A DNA stretch of 64,000 nt from Promethearchaeota archaeon (GCA_014728035.1 WJMJ01000034.1:30541-94540), one strand, 5' to 3'; numbered from the stretch's first letter, positions 22,001-42,401 are shown. The notes: generated by a model not told the origin, from the sequence alone. Made by a program: numbers and translations.

Positions 22001-25000
22001 CAGAGAAATTCTGAATATACCATACTGGTGTTGTGAGGTTGGTTATGACCAAATCCACATTAGCATCATTTATTCCTGAGCTCGTTAAATAATCTATGAA
22101 TTCAAATTCTATTGTGATGTTATCACCGTAAGGTGTTTCTTCAACAGAGGGGAATAGAATTTGTGTAGGACGCTCAATAGTATTCGCTACAGTTGATATT
22201 GTTCTAACAGTATAGTATGGTATTCCAACGCTCTTATTGATGAGTAGTTTGATTGTGTGAGAGCTAACTAACTGAGAGGGATCTAGGATAGTAGAATTGA
22301 AGGTTATCTCATAGTAGCTTGCATAAGCCCAGAGTGTGTAATCAGATTGGTCAATGACTGTATCTAGTGGACCATGGGTTAATGTGATATGGCTCTGATT
22401 AATGTAGATATTCTCGCCCGTGAAAAAGTCTTCAAATCTGAATGTGAAAGATATATCTTCAAGAAATGAAGTGTCACCTGGTGTCTTGGTTAGAATTATC
22501 TGAGTTGTTCTCTCAATTACCCGTGCATTAACATTTTGTGACAATGGGAGATAGTAAGGTTGTCCTACATAACTTACCTGGAACTCAATAGTGTAGATAT
22601 CTGGGCTCCCTAGAGCTGAAGTGTTTACATCAATTCTATACTGCCCATCTTCAATGTAAGTTATCCAATATGTTGTATTCTCAACTAGGGGTTCCACAGA
22701 TTCACTACAATTTAGAATGACTATCGCATCCTCAATACCATTACCAGTTGAATCATCAACATAGGTAATCAATATTGTAGAGTTTCTTCCATATGGAGCT
22801 GAATCTGGACTTTCGTATCCTAATTGTGTGCTTCTTTTCAAAACATTGATTGTGAAATAATGAATTGCATCAGCTGCATTGTTAGAACCTGTGTATAAGA
22901 TGGTTGCATTGAGGGTATAGGTTCCATCTGAAGGAAAGCCGGTGGAATCTAAAACAACCCTGTATTCTCCATCTCCCAAGTATGATACATAATACCAACC
23001 ACTCAAGGATATATTTAGAGATAAATCACCCGTCATTCCAGATGAGCTACCTGCTACCAAGTCAGTATAGACGAAATCAATAGTGACATTATTCCCCCAT
23101 TGAGGAGAATTAAATGCTAAATTGCTAAGTTGTGTGGTTCTGAGTGTAATTGTAACAGTGAATGCAAGACTGGATACTGCCGCGTAATTCGGTAATCCAA
23201 CCCAAGTCAGATTCAAATGGAGTGAATAAGATCCAACTCCACCAACAGTAGAAGTATCAATATACAACGTGAAGGTTCTATCTACATCATTATAACTCAG
23301 AGTGAAAATTATCCCACCTTCATTTAGACCAATAGTTAACTCTGAAGAATTGGAAATCTTGGTTGTTGATAAAGAGTCCACATAGTTGAATGAGAATTCT
23401 GCGGTTTCACCATAAGGAGTACTCTGAACAGGAGTATAGTCAACATAGGTTGGACGTTGTAAAACAATGAGTGTAACAGTAAGACTCTGATTCTCATAGA
23501 GCGGAGATATACCTGCTCTCCACATGAAGTCCAACTTGAATCTGAATGTTCCAGTTGTGATAAACAAAGAACTATCCAAATTGAATTCATATGTTCCCGG
23601 ATTAGTTCCAGATTCTACTACATAGAAATCCGATTGAATAACCGGATGACCTGAAGTAATAGGAGCAATTTGTAGTAACACATTATCAGTATCATTAGAG
23701 ATACGTGTGCTTGTGTCAAATTCTTTGTAAACTACTGTAAAGGTGAAGTTTTCAAGACAGTAGGTAGCAGAAGGAGCTATTTCTAAGAATACAATCGTAT
23801 CAGTCCCTTTAATCCGTACGGATGAATTTAGGTCACCTTCAACATATTTTACAGCGCCATCCCACCAGATGGAAATAATGAGGTTTTTCGTGCCAATAGT
23901 TCCCCATTGATCACTTGGAATGGAGATATTGTAGTGCCCATCTCCATAATTGGAATTACTAACCCAGTATTGTATACTGGAGATACCAGGGGAGCTCACT
24001 GTTATTCGGACGTTACCAGAAATGTTGGTAATTGGTATACTAAGATCAGTATCTTCGTAGTAGACTAGAGCTGTTATGTTTTCACCAAATTGTGTTTGCT
24101 GAATTGGTGAATCAAACTTGAATAGAGTTTGATGCTGTCTAACTAGAACATCGATAGAAAATGTGTGATTCTGATAGTTCGGTCGTTCAATAGTAAAATT
24201 AACTGTGTACCACTTCTGATCCGCACCTTGTGTGTCATCATCTTCTGTGAATATGGTAATCTCATATTTACCTGCAGTAGCAGTTTCAGAAATAGTGTAG
24301 TTATCCTCACCCAGTGTATGATATGTATCCCAATCACATACTATGTATGAAGCTGCACCAGCTATTGGACTTCCACTATCCTCAGTCCATGTAAGGAAGA
24401 ATGATTGATTAGAACCAACAGGAATTGATAGTTGATTTGCAGTATAACTAATAGAGTTGTACACCTCTCGTACCTCAACTAGAAGGAACATCTGAACGGG
24501 ATTAACAAAGTCAGCTGTTGCATTGATCAGGAGTTTGTAAGTTCCAAGAGGTACACCAGTTCCGTCAAGCTTGAAGTCATATGTGCCATCAAGGTTATCC
24601 GTTACAGAATAACTTGTAGACCAATTGCACCATAGAACTCCACTAGAAATCCCAGTTGGGATAACAGCATCTCTTCTGAAATTAACCGTGAATGATTGAT
24701 TGTTACCAATTCTATCTGATATCCCAGGATATTGGTCAGATGTAAGAGTAGCATCGTAATTAGCATTGATTGTCAATACACCTGAAGTATCATCATAGAA
24801 AGTCCGAGACCAGTTCATAACCATAGAGTATTGTCCTTTATCAGGAAGGTCTTCGGTTTCAAATACCAAAGTGTATTCACCATTTCCACTGCCTGAAAAT
24901 GAACCTGTTAGAATAACATCATTTGTTGAATTACGAATCTCATATGACATAGTTCCTTGGGCAATTGCTACTGAGCTATCAATATCATTTGCCTGAATTA

Positions 25001-26921: not shown

Positions 26922-29900
26922 TAGTCCATCCCTCCAATTTGGTCAATTAGAGCTTCGACCTCAGCCTTTGATAGCTCTTTGGCTTGTTCAATCATAATTT
27001 CAACCTCTGATTCACTAATTCCCATTTTTCGTAGTTTTTCTCGAAGATCATCTAGTTCAGCATCAGTAAGTTTCTGTTCAACATCTTCATCAGCAGATTC
27101 AGCAGCTGTTTCCTCAGCTAACTCCTTTGCACGACGAGAACGTTCTTGTCGAATAACCTCAGAGATGAAGCCAGCCCGTTCACTTGGTCGCATTGCTTCC
27201 AAATTTATTCTCAACGTTTGGATATCATCCTCAGTTAGACCAACAACTGTAGCTAGTTCATGAAGAAGCTCCTCAACATCAAGAATCTCTACTTGGATTG
27301 TTGAACGCGATATATCATCAGATGTTTTTATGATACCAACCGGCACCAGATCTTGATTCATCATAGACAGAAGCATTTCCCTTCTATCTGAGGTGTCGTA
27401 GGGTTCTGGTATACCACCCTTTGAGATTGTGTTGATCATTTTCTGAATCTTTCTAACTTGTTTTGGAACAGATAGAACCCGGATATACACAGCAGCTAGA
27501 ATCGCAAATCCAATAACTGCGATGGCAATATTTCTGAATCCAGTTACAAGAGCCTGTTGTTCTGGAGGAATTTCAGAAAATATCACAATATTGACAGTTT
27601 GAGATTCGTAATCATTCAAACTCATTGTGACTGTGAGTTCATAAGTTGCTACACCAGGTGGAATGAAGGCAAATACATACGTACCATTACCATAATCAAT
27701 CTCTCGGTCTAGTATTCGTGTAAGCCCTGGATTTGTTGTTGCATTATTTGCATTAGGAATTGCAGTAGCATGATCGAGGTCGTAATAGGTAACTCGAACA
27801 AATAGGATGTTTCCAGCAAATACAGATGGAGGTAGCGGCTCATAGGTCAACTCTGTTGCTATTTCTCTGATTACAAGATTCAGAATTATCTCTGTTTGAC
27901 TATAATTCAATTTGCTGATAGAAATCCTCACGCGATATGGCTCATCTTTTATTTCTAGTCTGTCAATACCTGTTGCACTAGGACTGAAAACATAAGTTCC
28001 ATTTCCAAGGTCTTCTAGGATAGCATTACCAAACTCCCAGATTGCTGATGCAGTTGCCCCAGAGATCAACTCATCATGAAGACTGTCAAGATAATCAAAT
28101 GAAACTGAGTAATCATCACCAACAGGATAGGTTATCTCTTCTGGTCCATCGATAGTTGTACTGATTGGCTTCACGATTAATTTGACATTTGTAAAGGCAT
28201 AGGCATGATTATCTTTCCTCATGGTAATCGATATTCTTCTTGCGCTACTACCTGCGATTACAATCGATGAGTTTAAGGTTAGTGAATAATTTCCACCACC
28301 TTCATTTACCAATAATCCCGAAAATCCTTCAAATACAAAATTCGTAGTAGCATTATCTATCCCAATGTTCGAATGAGTATTATTGTAATAAAGTGTGAAT
28401 GTTGCATTTTCACCATGAAATACAGTAAGCAATGCTGGCCCAATAATTTCAATTTTCGTTGGTATTGGTGTGACATCCAAAGTCACTTCAATAGAAGCTG
28501 GTTGGTAACCTGACTGACTGCTAGAGACTGTCAATATCCATTCACTAATAGCAATTGAACTGGTTGGAACCATTGCAGAATACCAACCATTTCCTAATTC
28601 AGTCATATTGCCAACAATCGTTCCAACGCTGTATGTGAGTGTTGAATTAAGGACTGGAAGGTTAAGGTCAGTATTATTAAGGTATACAGTCACATTGACC
28701 TCATCACCATAGACTGCAGGGAGGACGGAGATGTCATTAAGAACAGATAATTCCGTCGATGCTTCACTAACTTCAATAGTTAATTGAGTTGTGACAGTTT
28801 TGTAATTTGTAGATGATGCGGAAACCTGGACTTGGTGAGATCCAACAGTTACACCTGAAATAGTAAATTGCCCAACATATTTTGATTCGATTGCATTCCA
28901 AAAGATTTGTCCAGCCCCTCCAGTCCAGGTATATGTTACAATGCCAGAAGAAATTGGAGATGAATCGGACTGAATCACATACTCAACTTCTACAGTTACT
29001 GTTTGACCATTGACAGTAACATATGAATCTAGGTCTGCATTAATTGATGTACTGACTTTTGCAATTTTTATCTGGAAATCTCTTTGTCTGCTCTCATGAT
29101 TCAGTAAGGAGGATGAGAAAGTAATCGAATACTCTCCCGCATTGAATGAGGAAGAGAGAAGTGTTCTATTATAGATACCAGGTGCAACTTCGATTAAATC
29201 ATAGTACTGGCCACTTATGGTCATGTTCACACTAGCATTGATAATCGCTGAACCGTCACGAGCATCGGTCAGATTGACCGAGAACTCCATTGATTCGCCC
29301 CATATCGGTTCCGTAGGAGTAGCATCTATATCCATTAAAACAGGTACTGGTGCTAAAATAATATCAGCTAGTATTGTTCTGTTAACATGCAAGTATTTCT
29401 CAGCAGTAAGTGAGAAGCTGTAGATTTCTGCATCGAGCCCAGTCGTTTCAATAGTTATATTGTAAATTCCATCACCTAACTCAATAATGGTTATTGAGGT
29501 GCCATACAAAGAGTTCCAGTTTGATTGAATATCAGCAGCCTCAATCCCATCACCAGAGATTTGATTGATAAAAGTTAGATTTCCAATAATAATATCACCA
29601 AGATAGTTGGTAGACTCGTCAGATACTGCAAATGATAAAGTGGTTGACACCGGATTTACAATGATTGTAAACCGTAATAATGTCTTATTTTGATAATACG
29701 GAGTACCTGTCCAAGAGAAGTTTGCATAGAAGATAAATCGACCCAGAGTAAGTAATTTCGTGGTATTGATCTTCACACCATATGTACCATCGAAATTGTT
29801 GATAATCCAATATTGAATTGGAGTTATATTGCTACAAGAAATACTAACAGACGCATTTTCTATACCTATGCCATCAATATAATCACTGTAAGAAACAGTG

Positions 29901-32900
29901 GCAGTCGCATTCAAAGTGAAATATGCAGGAGGTGTCGAAAGCACCGCAACTTGAGTAGGTCTTGAAGTAATGGTTACTTCCGTACTGACTGTGGCGTTGG
30001 CATAGAAAGGTTCGATGTCGCTCCAATAAAACCTCACAGATATCTCATGACCAGACTCAAGTGTTGAAGTTAGAATTGTTGATAGAATTGAGATTGTATA
30101 GGTACCAGATGATCCGGTGAATGAGTACTGACTAGGTAAGATTTCCACACTGCCAATATGAGTCAGAATCAAACTGGACTTATTGATATCTATTGGAGAG
30201 TTCAATAGGGAATCAGTTATGGTAATCTGGAAACTTACATTCTCTCCAAATGGCGTATTTAGAGGTGACTTTGACACTATAAGAGATACGATTCTTCTTG
30301 AGACCTCAATGTTCACATCACGACTTCGGGATTGATAGAATGGACTTCCGGTATAGTCCGCGGTTACTGAAATTGTATAGGTACCGAAATTACCAAGAGC
30401 TTCAGTGTCAATACTAATCACGTAATACCCATCACCCTGGTCAACATACCAATAATTATCGTTTAGAACCAGCGTAGCTTCGGAACAGGTTGCTGAAATT
30501 GTAGTTCCAATAATGCCAGTTCCAGTGTTATCATCGGTATAATAAATGGTGATATTCGCAAGACTCAGGTATGGTGTGAGGTCAGGCAGCTCGCTTGTCA
30601 ATTGCGCTCGCCGGTTTGTGATAGTTATGTAAAACAAGTCAGAAGCATCAGTAGCATATCGAGCCCCACCATAGATTGCATCCACAGATACGACGTAAGT
30701 ACCTATGTTCCCAAATCCAGTAGTGTTGAGATGTAATGTGTATGTCCCATCACCATTATCAACGAAATAGTAGTATCCAGATAATGAGCTATTCAATGTT
30801 AGAATAGCATTATTCATTCCTAAAGATGTTCCATCATCTGTATCGGTATAAGTGAATAGAAGAGTCAGATTGTTCTGATATTGTATAGGTGAAAAGGTTC
30901 CATGAGTCAGTTCTGTATATCTTTCTCGAACATTTATCTGAACAGCAATAGAACTCTTATTCTGATAGAATGGAGAGCCCACCCACGTTATATCAATGTG
31001 GAAAGTATAAGTTCCAGGAGTCCAAGAAGAAGTGTCCAATTCTATCTTGAATACTCCCGTAATATCGCCTTCATAGAATATCTGGTAAGTTATTGCTTCT
31101 TGAATTGAGATTATAAGCTTGGTACTATTTCTAATAGAATCATCAGACAGGACATCTTTGTAGACCAAGGTCAGATTCACCAATTCATCATAGGGAGTAA
31201 CTGGTAAAGGATTCCATTCTGCAGTTGTCTGTCTATAGGTAGAGTAGACAGTAATGACAATTGATTGATTCTCATACAGAGGTAACTCACCATTTGTCCA
31301 ATTGAACATGATTCGGAGTTGACAACCAACTAATCCACTCAGTAGCGAGGTATTAAACTCAAAACGATATTCACCAGAATTGTTGAATGGATCTATTTCT
31401 GTGATTGTGAAATCAGACTGGGTTAGAGTTTCACCTGCAGTGAGAACAGTGATATAGATGTGAACATTTCCAGCGTAAGCTCCGGTTGAATTGACAATTC
31501 CAGTTGCGTTTGCAGTGTCATAATATATTATTGAGAATGAAAGGTCTTCTAGATATGGAGTCATGATAGGACTATCACCGATGAAGATATCTGTAGGAGT
31601 ACTGGTGATAGTTACAGAGGTCTCAATAACCAAATCTTCATACTTTTCAGTGATTCCAGTCCAGAATATTTCAATTGTAAGATTTCGTTCTCCAATTGCA
31701 CCCCATTGATCTGCAGGAACGAGAATGATATATTCGCCTGGATTTGACCCGTTAACAACTGAAAATGTGATTGGACTTCCATCACTAGTCACATTTATCA
31801 AGACTGCAAAATCATTCAATGTTCCATTTGTAATTCCAGCATCCACATCTGAATCATAATACAGCACGGTTGCTTCAACATTTGCGGTATATGGCGTTGG
31901 ATCGATTGGATTGACAAGTTCAAAGGAAGTAAGATGCGTCCGTAATTCAACTGTAATACTGAAGGTATGATTTTGTGAACCGTATCGTTCTATATCGAAT
32001 ATAACAGTAAAGCTGCCAAGTGGGTCATCATTAAACGAAATTAGCTCGATAGTATATTCTCCTGGGGAGGTTTCAGTTACAGTGTAGTTCGTATCTCCCA
32101 AACTATGAAATTCAGTCCAATTGCAGGATATCTCACTCTCAGCAAATTGAATTGGTTCATTTGCATCTGTATCGGTATAAGTCACCGTAAGAGTTCCAGT
32201 GTAACCTACAGGAATAGAAACGAAACTAGTTGACCTAATTACTGAAGTATGAACATCCCTGACTTGCACGGAAAGAAATATTGTTCGCGATTCACAGTAA
32301 TCATTTGATGCAGTTATGTTCAAATCATATAATCCAAGAGATACTCCACTTGTGTTGAAACTAATTTTGTAATACCCTGGTTGTCCAATGACAGGATCAA
32401 CGTTATAGCTGCTGTATGTCCAGTTTGTGACAATGGAAGCACCAGTAATTGGCTGTCCAAGCTGGTCTTCATAGTAAACCTCCATTTCAGCAACATATCC
32501 ACTTGGAATATTGATACCAGGTGCATCGTTCGAGAAGAACTCAGTCGTATAGATTACATTTAAGATGAATACCTCATTTACTGAATCGTAGTTATCCTTA
32601 GACCAATCTAGCTGAATTGGATATTGTCCATTTCCAGAGAGAAGAGTTGTGTCAAGTGAAACACTGTATTCTCCAGTTCCCATATTACTAACAATTCCCG
32701 TACCTGCAGCCCAATCATAAGTCATGAATCCATCAGCGACTAACGTATCTGCATCTGTATCATTTATCTGCAACTGCAATAACACAACATCACCATAAGT
32801 GACGTCCTTGCTCCAAGATGTTTCTGAACCAATTGGATATTTAACAAGCATCTCTGTACTATGGTCGATTTCAAAAGACCGTCTGAAGAATCCTATATTA

Positions 32901-35584
32901 TGAATTTCATTAGAGCTACTGATACCATCATTGACAACTGCTTGAACCTCCCAATTTCCAACTGACGCATTATTCGCTTCGAGATAGACATAATCAGTTA
33001 TAGCATAACCAGATGATACTGTAGCTGATAGAGAGTACCACAAACTATCTGAGGAGTCATACACATCAAATGTTACTAAATCACCCTCGTAAGTACTAGG
33101 AACAGATGCTCTGAAACGTGTTGGTTCGTTTGCTCGAAATGTTCTCGTAGTAGTCCACTGGGACTGAGTAGAATCCCAGACTTCCAAATTTGTTATCATA
33201 TTTGGCGAATTACCTTTCAGTAACCAGAAACCATTCTGATATGTTGTAGTTATATCAAAAACTGAAACATTTACTACTCCATCACCTGGTTGTCCTTGAT
33301 TCCATCCACTGCTGAGATTGGTAGCTCTATCAAATGGCTCTGCGACAAAGGTAATGTCTCTGTTCAGAGGTGTTGATATATTGAAGGAATATTCAGGTTC
33401 ATACCCATCTGGAACTGCAGCATAGTAGTTTGTAGTCCACTTTACGTTAGAAGCATTAGTAACAGAGTAACGTTCTCCTGAATTGAATAATGTGTCATAA
33501 ACAGTTGTACCACCGTGTTTCTTGGCAAAAGCTTTGACATCTACGTCAAACTCGATACTGATATCTCTATCAGGATCAGGTGTTGCAGGAATCGGCGTCC
33601 AAGTAAAATTAGCGAAAGCAGTATCCATCCATGTTGGACTAGCAGTGTAAGTAGCAAACCCAGTTCCGAAAACTGAAGGTCCACCAGTATCACTCACCGT
33701 ATTTCCATTCATTTCCATATTGATCTGAGAGGGTTTGACTTTCGCTTTTACATACACATGAATGTTATCAAATCGTACTTCAGGTCGGATATCATTATTC
33801 CTATACCATTCCTTCTGAGTCACTCTTAATCCAAGTGTTAAGTCCAAGTCATTGGGATTTACTGCAGTAGTACTTGCTTCAACAAGTCCGGTTGAATACC
33901 AAGTATTTGTTGCTAATGTAGGATCTTCGAGGCTTCTCCTCCAAAGGTAGTTTCCACCACTATCAGGGTCACCATCTGCTACGTACATCTCAAAGAATCC
34001 GCCCATTATACCCCAACCGCGTAGGTCAGCCCAATGATCAACTGAAACACCAATCCAAGTTACATCACCCCGATTGATGTTCAGATTCTGGGAGGCAAAC
34101 GTCTTATCGTCCAAATTGTACCAATATCCATAAGTAGAATCTGGGTCGTCATACCAATATCCATCCATAATCAGACTTAAAGCAGGATTTCCAGTTCCAT
34201 GTCCGTCAGATTCCCAACGAGCATTAAGTTTCATATGGCCACCACTCTCAAGAGTGTAGACATATCCCGTTGAATTGATTGCTACTCCATAATTGAAGAG
34301 AAATTGACCATTTCCGGAACCACGGCTACCCCAGTTATATTGATGTGTATCAATACCAGAATCGTAAACAAGAATTCTGTGATCACCAGAATCACATATG
34401 AATACATCACCAGAACCATCCACAGCTAATCCACGTGGGTCTCGTGTAGTGTCTGTATTAATCGCATAATTTCGACGATGCTGTGTGACTTGGTCAATAT
34501 AGGCTCCTGCAGACGAGAATTGAGATATTCCATAGTTATTGTTATAGTACATAGTAGCATCTGAAACGTAGACATCACCAGTGGCTTGGTTAATCGCAAT
34601 TCCACTTGGACAGATGAAATTTCCACCACCTGTGCCATATCCTCCAAATTGTGCGGAATAAGTACCTACTGAATCAAAGATCTGTACTCTGAAGTTACCT
34701 TGATCAACAACATACACTCCATTAGAAGATATTGCAATTCCAACAGGACCAAAAAATTCACCATTTCCGTTTCCATCCTGTCCAAATTCTGATACGTAGG
34801 TACCATCGCTGGTGAAAATCTGAATACGATTATTCCCATTATCTGCAACATATACATAACCTGTTGAGTTGATTGCAATACCCATTGGGTTGTCAAACTC
34901 TCCAGAAGCAGAGCCAAATGTTCCCCATTGTCCCTCATAATTACCCGCAGAGTCAAAATACTGAATTCTATTATTACCTGTATCTGCCACATAGATATAA
35001 TCAGAACCATTGATAGCAATTCCATATGGGTCAATGAATTGTCCATTTCCAGTACCATATGATCCCCATTGGGTCGCGTAAGTGCCAGTATTTGAAAAGA
35101 CTTGAATTCTGTTATTGCCTGAGAAACCTGTAGTTGCATGACTAGTACTGAAAGTCCATTGAGATGTGTCATCAAATCCGCTGTTTACGACCCAGGTTCT
35201 ATTCTCTGTTAATTCGGTTACAGTTGTAGTTACTTGATATGATTCCCATCCATCACCGATTGGTACCGTCAAATCCGTGCCTGTTGTTGTACCACCAGAT
35301 GAATCATATAGCATTGAAGATTCACTATACGTATCAACACGAGTGCCATATTCTGAACCATTCAACGCATAACCGATTCCATTCACTGAAGTAGGAGACG
35401 CTGAAAGATCATAACGATATAACACCTCATCGGGTCCAATTTCGATAATACTTCCATCATCTAATTCATAGAATTCGTTTTGTGAAGCCTCTTCTCCTGT
35501 GGGTGAAAACAATCCCATCATGGAAGACATAGTTAGCACTAATATGAGTGCCAGCAACTTGATAGATGTTCTTCTACTAGGCAC
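26921..35584 (-). CDS. Giant (2887 aa) single-pass cell-surface protein, paralog of 19032..26921, with NHL beta-propeller
   Basis: GTG start, signal peptide, 6 NHL blades (F-x-x-P-x-GIAI...YVAD-x-GN-x-RIQ-x-F), same repeats and tail as the paralog; TAATG stop/start overlap at 26921. Confidence 0.9.
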   Translation of the reverse strand: MPSRRTSIKLLALILVLTMSSMMGLFSPTGEEASQNEFYELDDGSIIEIGPDEVLYRYDLSASPTSVNGIGYALNGSEYGTRVDTYSESSMLYDSSGGTTTGTDLTVPIGDGWESYQVTTTVTELTENRTWVVNSGFDDTSQWTFSTSHATTGFSGNNRIQVFSNTGTYATQWGSYGTGNGQFIDPYGIAINGSDYIYVADTGNNRIQYFDSAGNYEGQWGTFGSASGEFDNPMGIAINSTGYVYVADNGNNRIQIFTSDGTYVSEFGQDGNGNGEFFGPVGIAISSNGVYVVDQGNFRVQIFDSVGTYSAQFGGYGTGGGNFICPSGIAINQATGDVYVSDATMYYNNNYGISQFSSAGAYIDQVTQHRRNYAINTDTTRDPRGLAVDGSGDVFICDSGDHRILVYDSGIDTHQYNWGSRGSGNGQFLFNYGVAINSTGYVYTLESGGHMKLNARWESDGHGTGNPALSLIMDGYWYDDPDSTYGYWYNLDDKTFASQNLNINRGDVTWIGVSVDHWADLRGWGIMGGFFEMYVADGDPDSGGNYLWRRSLEDPTLATNTWYSTGLVEASTTAVNPNDLDLTLGLRVTQKEWYRNNDIRPEVRFDNIHVYVKAKVKPSQINMEMNGNTVSDTGGPSVFGTGFATYTASPTWMDTAFANFTWTPIPATPDPDRDISIEFDVDVKAFAKKHGGTTVYDTLFNSGERYSVTNASNVKWTTNYYAAVPDGYEPEYSFNISTPLNRDITFVAEPFDRATNLSSGWNQGQPGDGVVNVSVFDITTTYQNGFWLLKGNSPNMITNLEVWDSTQSQWTTTRTFRANEPTRFRASVPSTYEGDLVTFDVYDSSDSLWYSLSATVSSGYAITDYVYLEANNASVGNWEVQAVVNDGISSSNEIHNIGFFRRSFEIDHSTEMLVKYPIGSETSWSKDVTYGDVVLLQLQINDTDADTLVADGFMTYDWAAGTGIVSNMGTGEYSVSLDTTLLSGNGQYPIQLDWSKDNYDSVNEVFILNVIYTTEFFSNDAPGINIPSGYVAEMEVYYEDQLGQPITGASIVTNWTYSSYNVDPVIGQPGYYKISFNTSGVSLGLYDLNITASNDYCESRTIFLSVQVRDVHTSVIRSTSFVSIPVGYTGTLTVTYTDTDANEPIQFAESEISCNWTEFHSLGDTNYTVTETSPGEYTIELISFNDDPLGSFTVIFDIERYGSQNHTFSITVELRTHLTSFELVNPIDPTPYTANVEATVLYYDSDVDAGITNGTLNDFAVLINVTSDGSPITFSVVNGSNPGEYIILVPADQWGAIGERNLTIEIFWTGITEKYEDLVIETSVTITSTPTDIFIGDSPIMTPYLEDLSFSIIYYDTANATGIVNSTGAYAGNVHIYITVLTAGETLTQSDFTITEIDPFNNSGEYRFEFNTSLLSGLVGCQLRIMFNWTNGELPLYENQSIVITVYSTYRQTTAEWNPLPVTPYDELVNLTLVYKDVLSDDSIRNSTKLIISIQEAITYQIFYEGDITGVFKIELDTSSWTPGTYTFHIDITWVGSPFYQNKSSIAVQINVRERYTELTHGTFSPIQYQNNLTLLFTYTDTDDGTSLGMNNAILTLNSSLSGYYYFVDNGDGTYTLHLNTTGFGNIGTYVVSVDAIYGGARYATDASDLFYITITNRRAQLTSELPDLTPYLSLANITIYYTDDNTGTGIIGTTISATCSEATLVLNDNYWYVDQGDGYYVISIDTEALGNFGTYTISVTADYTGSPFYQSRSRDVNIEVSRRIVSLIVSKSPLNTPFGENVSFQITITDSLLNSPIDINKSSLILTHIGSVEILPSQYSFTGSSGTYTISILSTILTSTLESGHEISVRFYWSDIEPFYANATVSTEVTITSRPTQVAVLSTPPAYFTLNATATVSYSDYIDGIGIENASVSISCSNITPIQYWIINNFDGTYGVKINTTKLLTLGRFIFYANFSWTGTPYYQNKTLLRFTIIVNPVSTTLSFAVSDESTNYLGDIIIGNLTFINQISGDGIEAADIQSNWNSLYGTSITIIELGDGIYNITIETTGLDAEIYSFSLTAEKYLHVNRTILADIILAPVPVLMDIDATPTEPIWGESMEFSVNLTDARDGSAIINASVNMTISGQYYDLIEVAPGIYNRTLLSSSFNAGEYSITFSSSLLNHESRQRDFQIKIAKVSTSINADLDSYVTVNGQTVTVEVEYVIQSDSSPISSGIVTYTWTGGAGQIFWNAIESKYVGQFTISGVTVGSHQVQVSASSTNYKTVTTQLTIEVSEASTELSVLNDISVLPAVYGDEVNVTVYLNNTDLNLPVLNSTLTYSVGTIVGNMTELGNGWYSAMVPTSSIAISEWILTVSSSQSGYQPASIEVTLDVTPIPTKIEIIGPALLTVFHGENATFTLYYNNTHSNIGIDNATTNFVFEGFSGLLVNEGGGNYSLTLNSSIVIAGSSARRISITMRKDNHAYAFTNVKLIVKPISTTIDGPEEITYPVGDDYSVSFDYLDSLHDELISGATASAIWEFGNAILEDLGNGTYVFSPSATGIDRLEIKDEPYRVRISISKLNYSQTEIILNLVIREIATELTYEPLPPSVFAGNILFVRVTYYDLDHATAIPNANNATTNPGLTRILDREIDYGNGTYVFAFIPPGVATYELTVTMSLNDYESQTVNIVIFSEIPPEQQALVTGFRNIAIAVIGFAILAAVYIRVLSVPKQVRKIQKMINTISKGGIPEPYDTSDRREMLLSMMNQDLVPVGIIKTSDDISRSTIQVEILDVEELLHELATVVGLTEDDIQTLRINLEAMRPSERAGFISEVIRQERSRRAKELAEETAAESADEDVEQKLTDAELDDLREKLRKMGISESEVEIMIEQAKELSKAEVEALIDQIGGMD
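34240..35116 (-). repeat. Six NHL repeats within the 2887-aa gene
   Basis: Repeated NNRIQ-x-F...G-x-F-x-x-P-x-GIAIN...YV-x-D units of ~47 aa. Confidence 0.85.
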
Positions 35585-35750: not shown

Positions 35751-37928
35751 CTATTTCCTTTTTATAATGAAAGCTACAACTATAACCAAACCAATTCCAC
35801 TTAGTGAAATCAGTATCACCTGGAGCATGAGAGGATTAGTAGGATTTGGAATAGTGGGATCTGGAAGAATAGGATCTCCATATAGTATTCGCCAATCGAG
35901 AGCGACCGGATTCATACCCCAATCATGAGCTACTACTTGAATTGCCATTGATTCAGAGTTGGGATATGCTGGTATATGTGCTGAGTATTCATCATCATCA
36001 AGTTCACATAGAACATAACTCAATTCATTATCAATTGACAGAATTAGTGTAACGTTCTCTATTCCGGAATCGGGGTCTTCTACTTCAATCCAAACATCAA
36101 ATTCTTCGTGGTCAATTGTAAGAGGATCAGTGCCCCAATTGGATATAATCGGTTGAGCATTATCAATCCTCGAATATCTCAAACGTTTCACCCAATCCTG
36201 TGCATCTGAAAGTGCTTCAAAACAGCCAATCCAAACCATCTGATTATATAATTGTACAGCTAGATTGATAGCAGCCTCTGCTTCATCACGAGCTTTCAAT
36301 ACTTTTGGTAAATCATCGGCAAGTATACCTTCGGAATAATCTTCGTAATCTTCCACAATCCTGCCCTGCATCTGATCCAAGTAAGTGCTCTGAACCCAAT
36401 TCTGGTCGAAAGTAGCTGTGCCATTATGCATGGAAAAATATCCCATAGGACTAAAGCTGAAATCTCCAACATAATGATAAGTATTCCATGTATGACCAAT
36501 ACCTACAGCATGCATGGTTTCATGAAGCTGGATAGACGAGATGCCACTTTTAGGAGTAACACCATCCTCTTGATAATAGCGCTCCCATGACTTCCAAATG
36601 ACTGTTTGACCACCTCCACCAAGTCCAGTAAACGTTCTACCTCCAGCATACATCTCCATCATTTTCTTGATGAATACAACACCAAATACCTCTACACGGT
36701 CTGTTAGGTCGGTAATATAGTTATCACGCAGTATTTCACGGATGGCATAGAACTGACTATATCCATCTACCTGTGTTACACCGTCGACAACCTCAGCATA
36801 GCTCCAAAATACGGTTTCCCAATCTGCCTGTTCTTCGATATTCAAGAAATCAATTTCTACAGTCCAATCAATAAATGGTAATAACTCAGCGAGATGTGCT
36901 TTCTGTATTTCAGCATCTGTGACCCACTGAAGACTTTCAATACTCACCCCTGAACTAACATCCATTCCGAAAACCAGTCCTCGCAGAAGACCTGATGTTG
37001 CTCTAACAGTTGGTTGATGTTCGTGAGCAAACATCAGATAGCTTATTGGGTCATACATGTAATCGCCAAGATAGGTTGAGAGTGCGTCCTTTCCTCCAGT
37101 TGTACTAAGATCCAGTTCTGAAACCTTGTCTTCCAAGTCTTTAGTACAATGTTCAAAATCATTAGGATATGGAGCTTCACCCCACCAAATCCTTGCCCAT
37201 CTGAGATACCATTGGTCAGCTGAAGGGTCAAGAACATAGATATTCCCTCTTCCTCCAATTCCTGCAAACTGAAACTTCACATCTTTGTTCAATTCATTAT
37301 CCCATTCAAGCCGGAACCAAGATTGATTCAAACCAGTGTCCGGATCAATGGGATGATAATCAAACCAATGTTCTAGTTCATGGTCGGGGGAATCATATTC
37401 TGAGAAGTTGAGAAGATAAAAGACATAACCGAGATCAGGAGGAGTAACTGCGGGATTCTCAATCAGCCAGTCTTCAACTGCATAGCCATCAATTGCTCTA
37501 CCATCACGAGAATTGAATATTTTTTGTGGCTCATCCAGATGTGCCTTCTGATACTCCAACGCTGTTTCATCCAGTTTAGAACCAGTATCAGTTCCATTCA
37601 CTGAATTACTATCCATTACATCTTGCAAACTACTCTCCCAAGAAGGGGATGCTGTTGATATTTCGTACGCAATATTATATTCCACCGCAACCTCTGTTGT
37701 TGTATATAATCTCGCTTGAGGAAAATCAGAGGTCAGGACGTTTTCATTTATTACGCCGTCATCATAATTTACCAGAACAATTTTGACTGTCCAATCTCTA
37801 GTAATTGTTGGTGTCGCGCTAAGTTTTTTTGTATCAATATCGGTGTGTGACATAGGTGTATATGTAGAAACTATCGGAAAACCTGATATCGCAAACAAGA
37901 TAATGAGTAGACCTGCTATTATCCTCAT
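35751..37928 (-). CDS. Secreted, C-terminally anchored metzincin zinc metalloprotease
   Basis: HETMHAVGIGH (HExxHxxGxxH) plus Met-turn FSPMGY; signal peptide from MRIIAGLLIIL (37928); Ig-like domain, Pro-rich linker, C-terminal TM and KRK. Confidence 0.85.
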   Translation of the reverse strand: MRIIAGLLIILFAISGFPIVSTYTPMSHTDIDTKKLSATPTITRDWTVKIVLVNYDDGVINENVLTSDFPQARLYTTTEVAVEYNIAYEISTASPSWESSLQDVMDSNSVNGTDTGSKLDETALEYQKAHLDEPQKIFNSRDGRAIDGYAVEDWLIENPAVTPPDLGYVFYLLNFSEYDSPDHELEHWFDYHPIDPDTGLNQSWFRLEWDNELNKDVKFQFAGIGGRGNIYVLDPSADQWYLRWARIWWGEAPYPNDFEHCTKDLEDKVSELDLSTTGGKDALSTYLGDYMYDPISYLMFAHEHQPTVRATSGLLRGLVFGMDVSSGVSIESLQWVTDAEIQKAHLAELLPFIDWTVEIDFLNIEEQADWETVFWSYAEVVDGVTQVDGYSQFYAIREILRDNYITDLTDRVEVFGVVFIKKMMEMYAGGRTFTGLGGGGQTVIWKSWERYYQEDGVTPKSGISSIQLHETMHAVGIGHTWNTYHYVGDFSFSPMGYFSMHNGTATFDQNWVQSTYLDQMQGRIVEDYEDYSEGILADDLPKVLKARDEAEAAINLAVQLYNQMVWIGCFEALSDAQDWVKRLRYSRIDNAQPIISNWGTDPLTIDHEEFDVWIEVEDPDSGIENVTLILSIDNELSYVLCELDDDEYSAHIPAYPNSESMAIQVVAHDWGMNPVALDWRILYGDPILPDPTIPNPTNPLMLQVILISLSGIGLVIVVAFIIKRK

Positions 37929-38340
37929 GTAGTAAAAATTGATTTTGAACTTTTTAAAAGTCACCAATCAAGCAGTATTTCACCTCACATTTATAATTCA
38001 CAATCACCAAATATATTAGCAGTGAATATATCATATTCGTTAGCGCATCAGTAAGACTAGTTAAACTCCTTCGACTAGGAACGAAAGTTCCCACATACTT
38101 GATTTCAAAGATGATCTAAGTCTACTGATACCACCTTTTGTATAACCGCGAGTAGCTTTACCACCACTACATTAATGATTGTGCATCTTGCTCTAGTACG
38201 ATTTGAATTGATAATGCAGAATATCTTGGAATATGAGGTGGATAAAATTCGAATGTTATATTCAGAAAAGGAACAACAAAGCTTTATCATTCAATATAAC
38301 GAAACGATAATTGATGTGACTCCAGAGGTGCTGGTTTAGT

Positions 38341-41300
38341 ATGGGTCTGAAAGATCTAATTAAAGGCGTAGGAAAAGACGTTCTGGTTACAGCAGCGACA
38401 GTAGTTTCAGGAGCAGCTCTAGGTCCATTAGGAGCAGCAGCGGTTGGCGGTTTTCTATCCAGAGTGATGGGTAAAGTTGGCGTTGATGTTGATCCTGATG
38501 AGCTATCTGAAGAGGTGCAAAGTGAAGCAGGTGATCAACCTGCGCAAGTTACTAAACTCACTGAACCTGAAACACTCCAGAGAATTGCTGATAAAATTGC
38601 AGAGCGAACCAATCAAGACAAACAAGAAGTTTTAGCCGGATTACAGTATGGTTTTAGAGAACTTCAGGGTGGAATGGGTGTTGTAATGGGTGAACTCAGA
38701 GGTAATACCCAACTTATTGCAGAAGTTCTCAAGATGGCAGGACAGGCTGATGAAAAAACAGATCAGCTACTCACTCATGCAGAACAAACTGAAAGGTCAC
38801 TTGATGAGGTACTTCGTCGTTTGGATGCAATGGAAAGAGGACTGGACATCACATTTAGGAAATTCATCGGTGATTATTCAGACCCTCATATGTTGAGCTA
38901 TGACCGACTAATGATGATAAGTCGTTTACAGAGACAAAGAACAGTTGTAGCTTCGAGTTTTGGAATAAGATATGAGCCTTCACTTTATGTACCCAGACAT
39001 GTTGAAGAAGGAGTATTTGACAGATTCATTGCAGACTCCGGAATGTCTGATAGAAACATATTCCTGGTCTTGGGGAATGTGGGACTTGGTAAAACTTGGT
39101 TCATGGCCCGCATGTCAAACAGGGCAATGGAATTGAACCAACCGACTTTCTTTGTTCCATTGAGCCATGGTATCAAATCATTAACAAGTGTGTTCAAAGT
39201 AGAATCCATACCAGCATTAGTAGATTTGATAGATCCTATTCTTGATGAAGCTGGAGAACATGCATTCATATTTCTTGATGGATTGGACGAAATGGACCCA
39301 ACACATATCCGGCACATCCTTGGCGCATTATCAAGTGCTAGAAGCGATTCTGTATCATTCATCATTTCATGTCGTGCAACTGATTGGGCTTCAAACCGTG
39401 CAATAGTGAGGGGTGCAAATGATATCAAGTACTATATTTATGATAATCCGAAAGCTGGTGAGCTTGCAAGGTCATTACGAATCAATACACCAGTATCAGT
39501 TCTGATGTCAGAGTTCACTGACCAAGAAATGAGCATGGCAATGGATAGATATGGCATTCCTCGCGAAGTGCCAGAAGACCTTCTACCACTACTGAAAAGA
39601 CCGTATATCATGCGCCTTTCAGCTCAATGGTATTACACAGTTGGTTCTCTACCCTCACCTTCCTCACCCGAATTCTTGGACTTGTTTGCAGGAGGACCAG
39701 AATATACGGATTCAGTATTTAGAAGACTAGGTATTCTAACTGAGAGAGACTCGCTCTATGCTACAGTAGAAAAAATCATCCAAGCTAAAAGAGAGTCTTT
39801 ACCATTAAATGAGATTCCAATCGACCCGGAATCATCAGCTTTCAGCACTTTGGTTTCTTCTGGAATGCTGATTATCAAGATTGATAGAATTGGTACGACT
39901 ATCTCACTCAGTCCGGAATTTTTAGTCCCATTGTTCTCACTCACAGTTCTTAGGCATCAGACTGACCCGTCAAGAATCAAAGATATGCTTGAGGGTATCA
40001 AATCCTGGAAACCTGATGCAGGAGATATTGTTGATAGAATTGTAGCAGAATTCATTATGCCAAAATCTGAGCGACCATCGGCTAGACTGTCTGCACCGGT
40101 GGACACTGAACCACGGTCTCCAGATAAAACAGGATTTACAAAAAGTCTCTCACAAGATTTCGGTAGACGGACACCAGTGAAAGCAGAAGATGCCCCAGTT
40201 GGATTAACACCAACACCTACGCCCACAGCTCCGGGCCTATCTCCCACATTTACCGCAGCTAGTGAAATAAAAGCAACTACCCCGAGAGAAGTAGCAGATA
40301 TTTTGCAGGAACTTATCAACGACCCTGATGTCCATGTTCGTAGAGCTGCAACAATCGGTCTTGGACTCACTGCTCCCAGAGTAAAAGATGAACATTCTCG
40401 AATAGACCTTTTACTACCATTACTCGATGATCCTGATTCCGATATCCGTGCAGGAGCAGCATGGGGGCTCTCACTGGTAGCTTCTTCACTACGAAACCTA
40501 GATTACGGTGTGGAACTTCTTAAACCACTTACTGATGACCTAGAATGGGCTGTTCGTAGGCGAGCTGCTTTTGGAGTCGGATTATTTGGCTCTAGAATGC
40601 AGAATGAATCGCAGGGAATGAGCTTCATTGAAAGTATGCTAGGACATAATGATGGTCAAGTTCGAGCCGGCGCAGCTGCAGGGGTGGGACTCGGTTCAAT
40701 GACAAAAGGAGACCCAAGTAAAGTAGTAGACCTTCTTCTACCACTACTTGAGGATGAATATGATGATGCTAGAGGTGGCGCAGCTTTGGGACTTGGCTTG
40801 ATTGCTTCAGCATTGCCTCCAGGCTCAAAAGCAGCAGATCCATTATTTGACCTTGCAAAGAAAGGTTTTGGAAAGATTAGAGTTGGGTCAATTTTGGGTC
40901 TCTCTCTTGCCTCAATCAAACATGGAAGTGGTCGCGGAATCGTAGGTGCATTTACCCCTCTACTGGACGATTCATCTTTTGAAGTTCGAGCAACATCATG
41001 TATTGGCATAGGTCTTGCAGCGTCAAGTTTATTCGAACCAGAAGAGATTGATTCAGCGATTGGTAATCTTACACCAAAATTAAGTGATGAAGAAGAATCT
41101 GTTAGATCAGCTGCAGCGCTTGGATTGAGTTATGTTGCATCAAGACTTCCACGCGAAAAGATGTCTCAGTTATTAGAGAGCTTGCTTGCTCAGACTGATG
41201 AAAGTGTCAGAGCCTGTGCTAGTGTGGGATATGGAATGGCAGCAACACGATTCAAGAAGCCAACAGAGAAGATTGACATTCTCAGTAAACTCCTTGGAGA

Positions 41301-41586
41301 CCGTGAGAAAGAGGTTCGGAAAGGAGCACTGCTTGGAATCGGGTTAGCTAGCACGAAAGTTAGGGATGTTCTAACAAAGGTGAACTATGTATCAGGGGGT
41401 ATAGCCTCAGAAGACCCAGTTATTCGCAAAGGGGCAGCTCTTGCGCTTGGAATATCTCTCTCCGAAGTTGAACTCGATATTGGTGTGATTTTAGGAGAAA
41501 GCTTCTGGGGTACGACACCTCTAACTCATGATGAATGCATCGTCGCTGGAGTTGCATCTAGTATAATGCTAAGATATGGAACATGA
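38341..41586 (+). CDS. STAND/NACHT-like P-loop NTPase with Gly-zipper/coiled-coil N-terminus and 11 HEAT/PC-like repeats
   Basis: Walker A GNVGLGKT (39073-39096), Walker B FIFLDGLDE, sensor-1 IISCR, LKRPYIMRL (GxP-like), P/T-rich linker, 11 repeats of ~36 aa; GAGGTG RBS. Confidence 0.85.
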   Translation: MGLKDLIKGVGKDVLVTAATVVSGAALGPLGAAAVGGFLSRVMGKVGVDVDPDELSEEVQSEAGDQPAQVTKLTEPETLQRIADKIAERTNQDKQEVLAGLQYGFRELQGGMGVVMGELRGNTQLIAEVLKMAGQADEKTDQLLTHAEQTERSLDEVLRRLDAMERGLDITFRKFIGDYSDPHMLSYDRLMMISRLQRQRTVVASSFGIRYEPSLYVPRHVEEGVFDRFIADSGMSDRNIFLVLGNVGLGKTWFMARMSNRAMELNQPTFFVPLSHGIKSLTSVFKVESIPALVDLIDPILDEAGEHAFIFLDGLDEMDPTHIRHILGALSSARSDSVSFIISCRATDWASNRAIVRGANDIKYYIYDNPKAGELARSLRINTPVSVLMSEFTDQEMSMAMDRYGIPREVPEDLLPLLKRPYIMRLSAQWYYTVGSLPSPSSPEFLDLFAGGPEYTDSVFRRLGILTERDSLYATVEKIIQAKRESLPLNEIPIDPESSAFSTLVSSGMLIIKIDRIGTTISLSPEFLVPLFSLTVLRHQTDPSRIKDMLEGIKSWKPDAGDIVDRIVAEFIMPKSERPSARLSAPVDTEPRSPDKTGFTKSLSQDFGRRTPVKAEDAPVGLTPTPTPTAPGLSPTFTAASEIKATTPREVADILQELINDPDVHVRRAATIGLGLTAPRVKDEHSRIDLLLPLLDDPDSDIRAGAAWGLSLVASSLRNLDYGVELLKPLTDDLEWAVRRRAAFGVGLFGSRMQNESQGMSFIESMLGHNDGQVRAGAAAGVGLGSMTKGDPSKVVDLLLPLLEDEYDDARGGAALGLGLIASALPPGSKAADPLFDLAKKGFGKIRVGSILGLSLASIKHGSGRGIVGAFTPLLDDSSFEVRATSCIGIGLAASSLFEPEEIDSAIGNLTPKLSDEEESVRSAAALGLSYVASRLPREKMSQLLESLLAQTDESVRACASVGYGMAATRFKKPTEKIDILSKLLGDREKEVRKGALLGIGLASTKVRDVLTKVNYVSGGIASEDPVIRKGAALALGISLSEVELDIGVILGESFWGTTPLTHDECIVAGVASSIMLRYGT
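40291..41466 (+). repeat. Eleven ~36-aa helical repeats, consensus L-x-x-L-L-x-D-x-x-x-x-VR-x-G-A-x-L-G-L-G-L
   Basis: Counted from the translation: VRRAATIGLGL, IRAGAAWGLSL, VRRRAAFGVGL, VRAGAAAGVGL, ARGGAALGLGL, IRVGSILGLSL, VRATSCIGIGL, VRSAAALGLSY, VRACASVGYGM, VRKGALLGIGL, IRKGAALALGI. Confidence 0.9.
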
Positions 41587-42401
41587 AGGGTGAAAAATCA
41601 CCCTCCTTGTCCTTTTTTGAGGTTTTTATTTTGGGTCCGAATCCACATCCAATTTGGCCTATTGAATGGGTTTTTTCTTTCCAGAAGATTATTGATTACC
41701 TCCAGAAACTTGCAATACAAAACACAAGTAAAACAAAACCCGAGATTTTCGTTGGAGATTTTGGTGCTGGAAGAAATGAAGAAATACCACTGTTTTTTTC
41801 CAAGGTAATTCAAAACTCTATCTTAGAAAATAGTGACTGGGAAAAACCATATCCAATTTTCAAAGTTTATTGTACTGATGTCCATACCCTACGAATTGAG
41901 GATCTCTTTAGCAAGCTTGTTGATGAGGATATCATCGAACATTCCAGAGTTGTTCATGCAGGACTAGAGGATATGGGTGGATTTGCTGTCTTTCCATTAG
42001 ATCAAAAAGAAGTAATTGCTGAGCTTGAGAAACCAACCTGGATTGACGTGTATATCAATGACCATGAAGCTTTTCCGGAAAATAGCATAGATATTGGAAT
42101 CATGAACAATGACATGCTTGGGTACTTGGCAGAATATTATACCGAATATAGTGATCTTAAGCGAGCATTAGAAGGAGCTGAGAAAATCATCAAACAAGAG
42201 GGGTTATTCCTTGTCACACAACCGTGTTCACTTTACAAGTTTGATAATATAGAAGTTCTAGAGAATACTGGATTTTCATTTCTTATGGGAGCTGACATAG
42301 ATAAACAAACTGGTGAAATTGAGTACATCAAAAAAGATACAGATCCGAAGAGATTGGGAAATTTGAATCATTACACCTTTCTAGCTTTCATCAATGAATG
42401 A
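41583..42401 (+). CDS. Divergent class I SAM-dependent methyltransferase-like protein
   Basis: Motif I VGDFGAG, motif II VYCTD, FPENSIDIG (post-II), IIKQEGLFLV (LKPGG-like); ATGA overlap with the NTPase. Confidence 0.65.
   Translation: MKGEKSPSLSFFEVFILGPNPHPIWPIEWVFSFQKIIDYLQKLAIQNTSKTKPEIFVGDFGAGRNEEIPLFFSKVIQNSILENSDWEKPYPIFKVYCTDVHTLRIEDLFSKLVDEDIIEHSRVVHAGLEDMGGFAVFPLDQKEVIAELEKPTWIDVYINDHEAFPENSIDIGIMNNDMLGYLAEYYTEYSDLKRALEGAEKIIKQEGLFLVTQPCSLYKFDNIEVLENTGFSFLMGADIDKQTGEIEYIKKDTDPKRLGNLNHYTFLAFINE

Follow-up and report, generated by a model that had tools for sequence, protein, structure and literature searches.

A NACHT-like protein family, known to date from Asgard archaea alone, with a constant N-terminal head and exchangeable C-terminal regions

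Does an Asgard archaeon possess an NLR-like protein that works as an immune receptor, and does the methyltransferase-like gene that follows it belong to the same system? The question is raised by two adjacent genes in a stretch of 64,000 nt from a Promethearchaeota archaeon (GCA_014728035.1, WJMJ01000034.1:30541-94540), which is called the window here and whose positions are counted from its first letter. The first gene, P0001, is an open reading frame (ORF) of 1081 aa at 38341-41586 on the plus strand; the second, P0002, is in its longest form an ORF of 272 aa at 41583-42401 on the same strand. Each is single-copy in the source genome, and their composition is unremarkable (GC content of 0.41-0.44 at the two genes versus 0.35-0.41 elsewhere). 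An initial annotation had seen in the pair a surveillance module of an immune or cell-death type, with the methyltransferase-like protein as a regulator or guarded partner of the NLR-like ATPase. The reading favoured here, in which belief and doubt weigh about equally, is that P0001 is a switch of the NACHT clade of signal transduction ATPases with numerous domains (STAND), that it bears a fixed head of membrane type and that it has no methyltransferase partner.

P0001 is a Thorarchaeota protein of five parts, namely a basic helix with a hairpin, a further set of helices, a NACHT-like NTPase, a linker rich in proline and threonine, and a repeat region. The tripartite NLR-like layout first proposed for it (head, STAND NTPase and repeat tail) is recovered by motifs, structural model and family alignment, and the motifs quoted for both proteins are all found in the translations. 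The NTPase, with its nucleotide-binding, helical and winged-helix domains, was assigned from motifs, profiles and fold to residues 216-575 (38986-40065, plus strand). It displays a Walker A motif (GNVGLGKT, residues 245-252), a Walker B motif (FIFLDGLDE, 309-317, of which DGLDE is 313-317), the sequence IISCR at 341-345 with the sensor-1 arginine R345, and RP at 420-421, where P421 lies in an L.(K/R)P motif of the helical domain. Across 40 family members, G248, G250, K251, T252, W253, D313, G314 and R345 are invariant, and D316, E317 and P421, together with G24 of the head, are nearly so (at least 90% for D316 and E317). The quoted motifs are therefore not due to chance.

Profile searches place this NTPase more precisely at the level of the family than at that of the single protein. 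For P0001 alone, the Pfam matches to the NTPase are below threshold, both for nSTAND5 (6e-6; 26.5 bits versus a gathering cut-off of 34) and for NPHP3_N (8e-4; 20.1 bits versus 24.8). Among the 40 members, NPHP3_N is matched in 21 (best 2.8e-11), nSTAND5 likewise in 21 and NACHT (PF05729) in 11 (best 3e-8). A profile of the NTPase gives scores of at least 243 bits within the family; after a wide gap, from 62 bits downwards, follow PF05729 NACHT proteins whose heads are HSDR_N_2, TIR_2 or DUF4062. The nearest ESM Atlas clusters to P0001 are bacterial NPHP3_N/NACHT proteins, here with heads that are trypsin or resemble restriction endonucleases (REases). A profile search of PDB sequences with the alignment of residues 1-620 (A1) returned noise only. 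The AlphaFold2 (AF2) model of the same residues has a mean predicted local distance difference test (pLDDT) of 79.8 and a predicted template modelling score (pTM) of 0.76. It consists of an all-helical head (3-201), a nucleotide-binding domain (240-390), a helical domain and a winged helix with a beta-hairpin (486-523). Foldseek ranks the NRC4 resistosome, NLRC4, Avs4, CED-4 and Apaf-1 highest, interspersed with Orc/Cdc6 and archaeal ATPases. In VIA, NLRC4 gives the longest alignments (334-339 aa over residues 183-577, Z 11.4-12.0), with Avs5, ZAR1 and NRC4 among the other long ones. Because fold scores alone do not separate the protein from Orc/Cdc6, its assignment relies on the motifs, the family-level profiles and the PF05729 outgroup. 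On these grounds the NTPase very probably belongs to the NACHT clade of STAND proteins, and the grouping made in the initial annotation, with NACHT/STAND and not with non-STAND AAA proteins, is upheld.

Beyond the single protein, P0001 appears to be a stand-alone member of a small family of ~60 clusters, seen so far only in Asgard archaea. All named members come from this group (Thor-, Loki-/Prometh-, Hel-, Njord- and Sigynarchaeota). Homologues of P0001 itself are all from Thorarchaeota, with 56-91% identity over residues 1-620, and a subfamily at 44% identity carries HEAT_PBS repeats. The C-terminal regions differ from member to member: leucine-rich repeats (LRRs) are present in 15 of 40, HEAT repeats in four, FHA domains in four and WD40 repeats in two, and TPR repeats are found in P0034. 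Head and NTPase are thus fixed, and the C-terminal region (LRR, HEAT/PC, FHA, WD40 or TPR) is exchangeable. The distribution is patchy. In a sample of 201 Asgard genomes, which includes 43 of the same taxonomic family as the source, members occur in 15 genomes overall and in eight of the 43, with up to three copies per genome. NLR-type systems as such are already on record for Asgard archaea (PMC11291487), and no description of this combination of head and NACHT domain was found in the literature searched.

What, then, is the head? Its first part, residues 1-45 (38341-38475, plus strand), was delineated by translation, alignment and AF2 as a basic amphipathic helix followed by an uncharged hydrophobic hairpin, rich in glycine, alanine and proline, with a kink at G28-P29. 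Its second part, residues 46-215 (38476-38985, plus strand), is helical or coiled-coil and matches no known family, as judged from AF2, Pfam and a profile search. In the model, helices at 12-23 and 28-45 precede those across 52-201. A small residue recurs at every fourth position (T20, G24, G28, A32, G36 and S40), as in a Gly-zipper, a periodicity that is clear in the Thorarchaeota subfamily and partial in Loki-type members. The uncharged segment of P0001 is 27 aa long, with a Kyte-Doolittle hydropathy (KD) of 1.67. A charge-free run is kept in 54 of 54 members (median length 26.5 aa, mean KD 1.57), and the best 19-residue window reaches a median KD of 1.75, above the usual membrane threshold of 1.6. 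The net charge is +5 on the N-terminal flank and 0 on the C-terminal one. Throughout the family, the segment has a proline close to where it begins and GP or PP at its centre, and in alignment A3 both G24 and P29 are invariant. Periodicity, uncharged run and family-wide hydropathy collectively bear out the N-terminal Gly-zipper hairpin claimed for P0001 at the outset.

The head is also peculiar to the clade. A 215-position profile of alignment A3 (residues 1-215) retrieved 61 proteins at E<=1e-3 among 1.84 billion representatives, 42 of them at <=1e-10, and in every full-length hit the same NTPase stands directly after the module. For this reason the N-terminal module is regarded as clade-defining and not as a shuffled effector. 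When isolated modules of seven members were searched against Pfam at E up to 5, coiled-coil noise and no family was obtained. The head thus looks like an undescribed module tied to an Asgard-restricted NACHT clade, as far as sequence comparison can tell.

As to topology, where 60-770 aa come before the segment, a signal peptide is lacking and the extension holds domains of cytoplasmic type (P0033, and P0088 with a zinc ribbon). Since the NTPase must be cytoplasmic too, both ends of the hairpin would lie in the cytoplasm. The segment probably does not span the membrane as an anchor but enters it as a monotopic, Pro-kinked hairpin, and association of P0001-type heads with the membrane is predicted with somewhat more confidence than doubt. 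In stomatin, a conserved central proline fixes the topology of a hairpin, and in VacA, the formation of channels depends on tandem GxxxG motifs in a hydrophobic stretch at the N terminus; both are analogies only. A complex prediction with four copies of residues 1-215 (A3) reached 0.18 versus a mark of 0.42 and is used as evidence neither way. One homologue, P0019 (892 aa, on an 11-kb ENA contig), is without the first 63 residues, including the hairpin, and diverges fully after about residue 460, inside the helical domain, with an unrelated continuation that matches PF16967. A frameshift, chimeric assembly or decay of the copy may account for this.

At the other end of P0001, residues 576-640 (40066-40260, plus strand) form a poorly conserved linker rich in proline, threonine and serine, as seen in the translation and in the pLDDT (25-36 over residues 579-620). 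In homologues it can be aligned only for the 91% orthologue. Then, in residues 641-1081 and the stop codon (40261-41586, plus strand), come 11 HEAT/PC-type repeats of ~36 aa, the presumed sensor, where PC denotes proteasome/cyclosome repeats. By inspection, the repeats are rich in glycine and alanine, with a core of the form ...R.GAA.GLGL.... Pfam HEAT matches are strong over 640-1040 (HEAT_2, 5e-31). Among PDB sequences, the region is matched best by the PC repeats of Rpn2 and Rpn1 (5e-7 to 1e-5) and next by PP2A-A and alphaRep, and three homologues of P0001 have precomputed PF01851 matches. The P/T-rich linker and the C-terminal repeat array of the initial annotation are both evident in the translation. 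The PC signature and the period of ~36 aa are common to P0001 and to Rpn2/PSMD1 and Rpn1/PSMD2, in which the repeats number ~11, a comparable count, and act as protein-docking scaffolds. Rpn1 and Rpn2 are proteasome subunits, however, whereas the repeats of P0001 are the tail of a STAND NTPase, and in Pfam it is HEAT families and not PC_rep that P0001 matches, unlike Rpn1/Rpn2. The repeats are the fastest-evolving part of the protein, with 31-48% identity to homologues versus 44-51% for the head and 61-73% for the NTPase.

Several known systems share this architecture. Bacterial NACHT proteins carry HEAT, LRR, TPR or WD40 repeats and have transmembrane (TM) or helical (NNH) heads (Kibby et al., 10.1101/2022.07.19.500537). 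In bNACHT (10.1101/2022.07.19.500537) and Avs (PMC13581612) proteins, head, NACHT domain and repeats form a single polypeptide as in P0001, with the same Walker B pattern DGhDE and sensor-1 arginine, and bNACHT-type proteins are the closest neighbours outside the family in both sequence and structure. P0001 departs from bNACHT and Avs in being unmatched by antiphage models, in lying outside defence islands and in having only Asgard archaea among its named relatives; unlike in bNACHT proteins, its head goes one-to-one with its clade, without shuffling. In plant CC-NLRs (ZAR1, NRC4 and Sr35) and in fungal HeLo/HET-S systems, a helical head likewise precedes a STAND NTPase and repeats, and alignments of the P0001 model with ZAR1 and with NRC4 cover ~280 residues in the region of the NTPase (Z 11.2-11.8). 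The NTPase of P0001 is nevertheless of NACHT type, in contrast to the NB-ARC domain of plant CC-NLRs, and the heads share no sequence family. The hydrophobic element is an uncharged Pro-kinked hairpin in P0001, whereas it is an amphipathic alpha-1 helix in plant CC-NLRs.

For the favoured reading, the following course of events can be proposed. The hairpin, with both ends in the cytoplasm, would keep P0001 at the inner face of the membrane or bring it there. The HEAT/PC repeats would bind a protein ligand, which would permit the ATP-dependent oligomerisation of the NACHT domains, and oligomerisation would cluster the N-terminal modules. The clustered modules might then perturb the membrane, with abortive infection or cell death as output, or nucleate signalling there. 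That N-terminal helices are presented to the membrane through oligomerisation is a notion taken from resistosomes and HeLo systems. By analogy with such systems, an immune or abortive-infection function is conceivable, with the balance leaning slightly against it. The case draws on the NLR layout, the swappable sensors, the patchy distribution with up to three paralogues and the outgroup with REase, TIR or protease heads.

Various observations weigh against the favoured reading. The defence context looked for near P0001 did not materialise: in 10 loci of the family, neither a defence island nor a conserved partner was seen, and restriction-modification, CRISPR-array, toxin-antitoxin and Abi genes are absent from the neighbourhood, apart from a lone gene of the RAMP superfamily beside P0033 and a faint integrase match beside P0071. 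There is no mobile-element context at P0001 or most of its relatives, and their neighbours are housekeeping and surface-protein genes. On P0001, PADLOC finds only HEAT-ARM_XIII and HEAT_CxxC_PDDEXK, both on the repeats, and the NCBIfam models EruA and HyoA give 21 bits versus a cut-off of 1000 and 20 bits versus 1200. VIA Z scores of 11-13 are tied with those of Orc/Cdc6, RFC, BrxC and other AAA+ proteins. The Thorarchaeota HEAT subfamily keeps 56-64% identity across genera and is partly syntenic there with the tyrosyl-tRNA synthetase gene and a pair of giant surface-protein genes, a behaviour that resembles vertical inheritance more than arms-race turnover. Finally, the hairpin could be buried inside a helical head.

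The genes surrounding P0001 encode two giant Ig/NHL surface proteins, a membrane protein of 738 aa, a hybrid histidine kinase, an ExoIII-like protein, an MFS transporter and an ABC permease; none is a defence gene. The giant NHL/Ig pair (19032-35584, minus strand) ends in cytoplasmic tails encoded at 26921-27535 and 19032-19650, in which a TM helix is followed by SVPK..R... and ~190 aa. This tail family is present in 42 of the 43 genomes of the taxonomic family, usually in two to nine copies and on proteins of 2000-6000 aa, and is weaker in family f12 (14 of 19). The pair was considered as a partner of P0001, with which it is syntenic in several Thorarchaeota, and was rejected on the distribution of the tail family (42 of 43 versus eight of 43 for P0001), so that the link survives as speculation only. 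Divergent from P0001, the gene at 35751-37967 (minus strand) encodes the 738-aa protein, in which a hydrophobic anchor at the N terminus and a TM helix at the C terminus are accompanied by a metzincin-type zinc-protease signature HExxHxxGxxH (HETMHAVGIGH). It has no Pfam match and is syntenic at two related loci, L001 and L005 (717-719 aa).

Elsewhere in the family, the distant member P0033 (1337 aa; L034 9654-13667, minus strand) has ~760 aa of DUF11 and mu-homology-like beta domains before the hairpin and no C-terminal repeats. Downstream of it stands the solitary RAMP-superfamily protein (L034 8312-9097, minus strand; PF03787, 2e-8), with no CRISPR-Cas locus visible in 18 kb. The LRR-type P0076 (L036 1-13619) is encoded directly after, and on the same strand as, two giant proteins of ~1740 aa with LVIVD repeats and is itself followed by a separate 316-aa gene made of LRRs only. 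Giant surface proteins flank Thorarchaeota HEAT-type members as well. Their place beside family members may be due to chance, such genes being abundant in these genomes.

The alternative that survives best is that P0001 serves no immunity at all and acts, tethered to the membrane, as a STAND scaffold or switch in some endogenous process, its HEAT/PC repeats binding a host protein. Surface-receptor signalling, proteostasis and cytoskeleton control are candidate processes, with parallels in STANDs of the MalT or AfsR type. The housekeeping-type neighbourhoods of the 10 loci and the synteny and cross-genus identity of the HEAT subfamily fit such a role. So do the FHA sensors (four of 40), which suggest kinase-dependent endogenous signalling, and the match of the repeats to PC sequences, which in Rpn1 and Rpn2 are docking scaffolds. 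A housekeeping regulator agrees poorly, however, with a distribution that is patchy even within one taxonomic family (eight of 43), with variable copy number and with sensors swapped on a constant head and NTPase. The nearest relatives outside the family have REase, TIR and protease heads typical of conflict systems, and the giant surface receptors are not co-distributed with P0001. An endogenous regulator is rather unlikely, though to be taken seriously.

More doubtful is the possibility that the hairpin is the buried core of a soluble, NNH-like helical head with an adaptor or oligomerisation role. In the AF2 model, the segment is indeed folded into two helices (pLDDT 67-89) of a head that is helical throughout, and in some members its hydropathy is weaker, with histidine or lysine in the segment (P0034, KD 1.23; P0033). 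NNH heads are common in bacterial NACHT proteins (10.1101/2022.07.19.500537), and a language-model search pointed to an NNH3 cluster at 0.75, which is below the noise level of 0.8 and is kept only as a lead. Against a soluble core, the run of ~26 residues is free of charge in all 54 members at the hydropathy given above, the N-terminal flank is always strongly basic, and no Pfam NNH family is matched at E up to 5. It is the conservation of charge-free run and basic flank in all members that favours a membrane hairpin over a buried core.

A bolder version of the favoured reading would make the head an Asgard-specific membrane-executioner domain. Oligomerisation of the NACHT domains would bundle the hairpins into a pore or lesion, and in Thorarchaeota the trigger would be read by a closed ring of PC repeats. 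This, too, is improbable on present evidence.

There is then the second gene, for which the initial annotation had claimed a methyltransferase-like product, a SAM-binding motif I and an ATGA overlap with P0001. The first claim stands: P0002 is, according to its predicted structure, a protein of class I S-adenosylmethionine (SAM) methyltransferase fold. Its AF2 model, built with 18 homologues, has a pLDDT of 86.6 and a pTM of 0.85. Foldseek gives at least 500 matches, of which the listed top hits are all of the class I SAM-methyltransferase fold (best 5e-9). VIA gives Z 15-16 with root-mean-square deviations of 2.4-3.7 over 153-192 residues, and the ESM Atlas neighbours by structure and by feature are methyltransferases. 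No sequence match was obtained in Pfam, NCBIfam, PADLOC or the PDB, the profile of alignment A2 included, which gave noise.

The motif VGDFGAG is present at residues 57-63, but in D59-F-G-A-G63 only D59 and G63 are invariant, and in most homologues the loop is degenerate (DFA[SA]GE). Conservation further extends to D99, invariant at the end of beta-2 (strand 92-99), to D170 on beta-4 and to an invariant block NND..GY...YY after beta-4. Conservation of the four residues and the block suggests an active enzyme. Fold and strand order are those of GtmA, TmtA, YcgJ and Bud23 (Methyltransf_11/25/31-like), and the motif I-like DFGAG, D99 and D170 stand at the expected places of SAM contact. P0002 differs from known class I methyltransferases in its degenerate Gly-rich loop, its family-specific NND..GY...YY block and its absence of sequence hits. 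It appears to belong to an orphan class I family found almost only in Thorarchaeota.

The start of P0002 and its link to P0001 are less favourable to the initial annotation. An ATGA overlap of the two longest ORFs does exist in the DNA, but the true start is probably the TTG at 41631 (residue 17). The ATGA start is doubted because the public gene call and the Atlas record both begin at this TTG, because homologues start near residue 17-22 with conserved sequence from about residue 20, because residues 1-20 have a pLDDT below 50 (AF2), and because a sister genome has a 45-nt gap between the genes and a stop inside the extension, so that the overlap is not conserved there.

The phyletic pattern speaks against a two-gene system. 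In the genome sample, the P0002 family is present in 20 of the 201 genomes and in 18 of the 43, two of which it shares with the P0001 family. Besides G000, the source genome itself, the two families co-occur only in G128, of the same genus and with the genes adjacent, and in G069, on different contigs. Of the 14 genomes of genus g9, 11 have P0002 and none has P0001. Adjacency is limited to G000, G128 and L005, all of genus g1, where the neighbourhood is wholly syntenic; a pair conserved more widely across the Asgard genomes sampled is not found. Downstream of the P0001 homologues with 56-57% identity, other genes take the place of P0002, encoding a VIT/VWA-domain protein or a giant surface protein (TSP3 or unannotated). 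Homologues of P0002 stand after Ras/Arf GTPases or are set among cupin, ATP-grasp and coiled-coil genes. The former case is seen in two contigs that are Thorarchaeota-like but more distant, where a Ras/Arf/Roc GTPase of 164-165 aa lies directly upstream of the P0002-family gene (L006 7480-8738 and L007 7397-8672; Ras, 1e-25), with Roadblock/LC7 and further Arf genes nearby. A small GTPase as a general partner was discarded, since a tblastn search of 12 further loci revealed none within 1.5 kb.

P0002 is therefore a lineage-specific chance neighbour and not part of the P0001 system, although the two genes may be co-transcribed in genus g1. A regulatory or guarded role of the methyltransferase-like protein with respect to the NLR-like ATPase is highly improbable and largely refuted by this phyletic pattern, despite two co-oriented genes at most 45 nt apart whose longest ORFs overlap by ATGA, an arrangement kept in two close relatives (L001 and L005), and an intact-looking methyltransferase fold with conserved pocket residues.

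For annotation, the consequence is that P0002 should not be described as part of a P0001 system. For the biology of these organisms, the family extends the known STAND repertoire with members that standard defence finders miss. NLR-like STAND sensors are a common element of immunity in animals, plants, fungi and bacteria; among prokaryotes, Asgard archaea are the nearest relatives of eukaryotes. If the executioner pore and the PC ring were true, P0001 would be an archaeal counterpart of the resistosome, and an immune-type receptor of Asgard archaea would be linked with a eukaryote-signature scaffold, the PC ring being otherwise known from eukaryotic Rpn1, Rpn2 and APC1. The family thus makes a tractable question of whether an archaeal NLR acts at the membrane.

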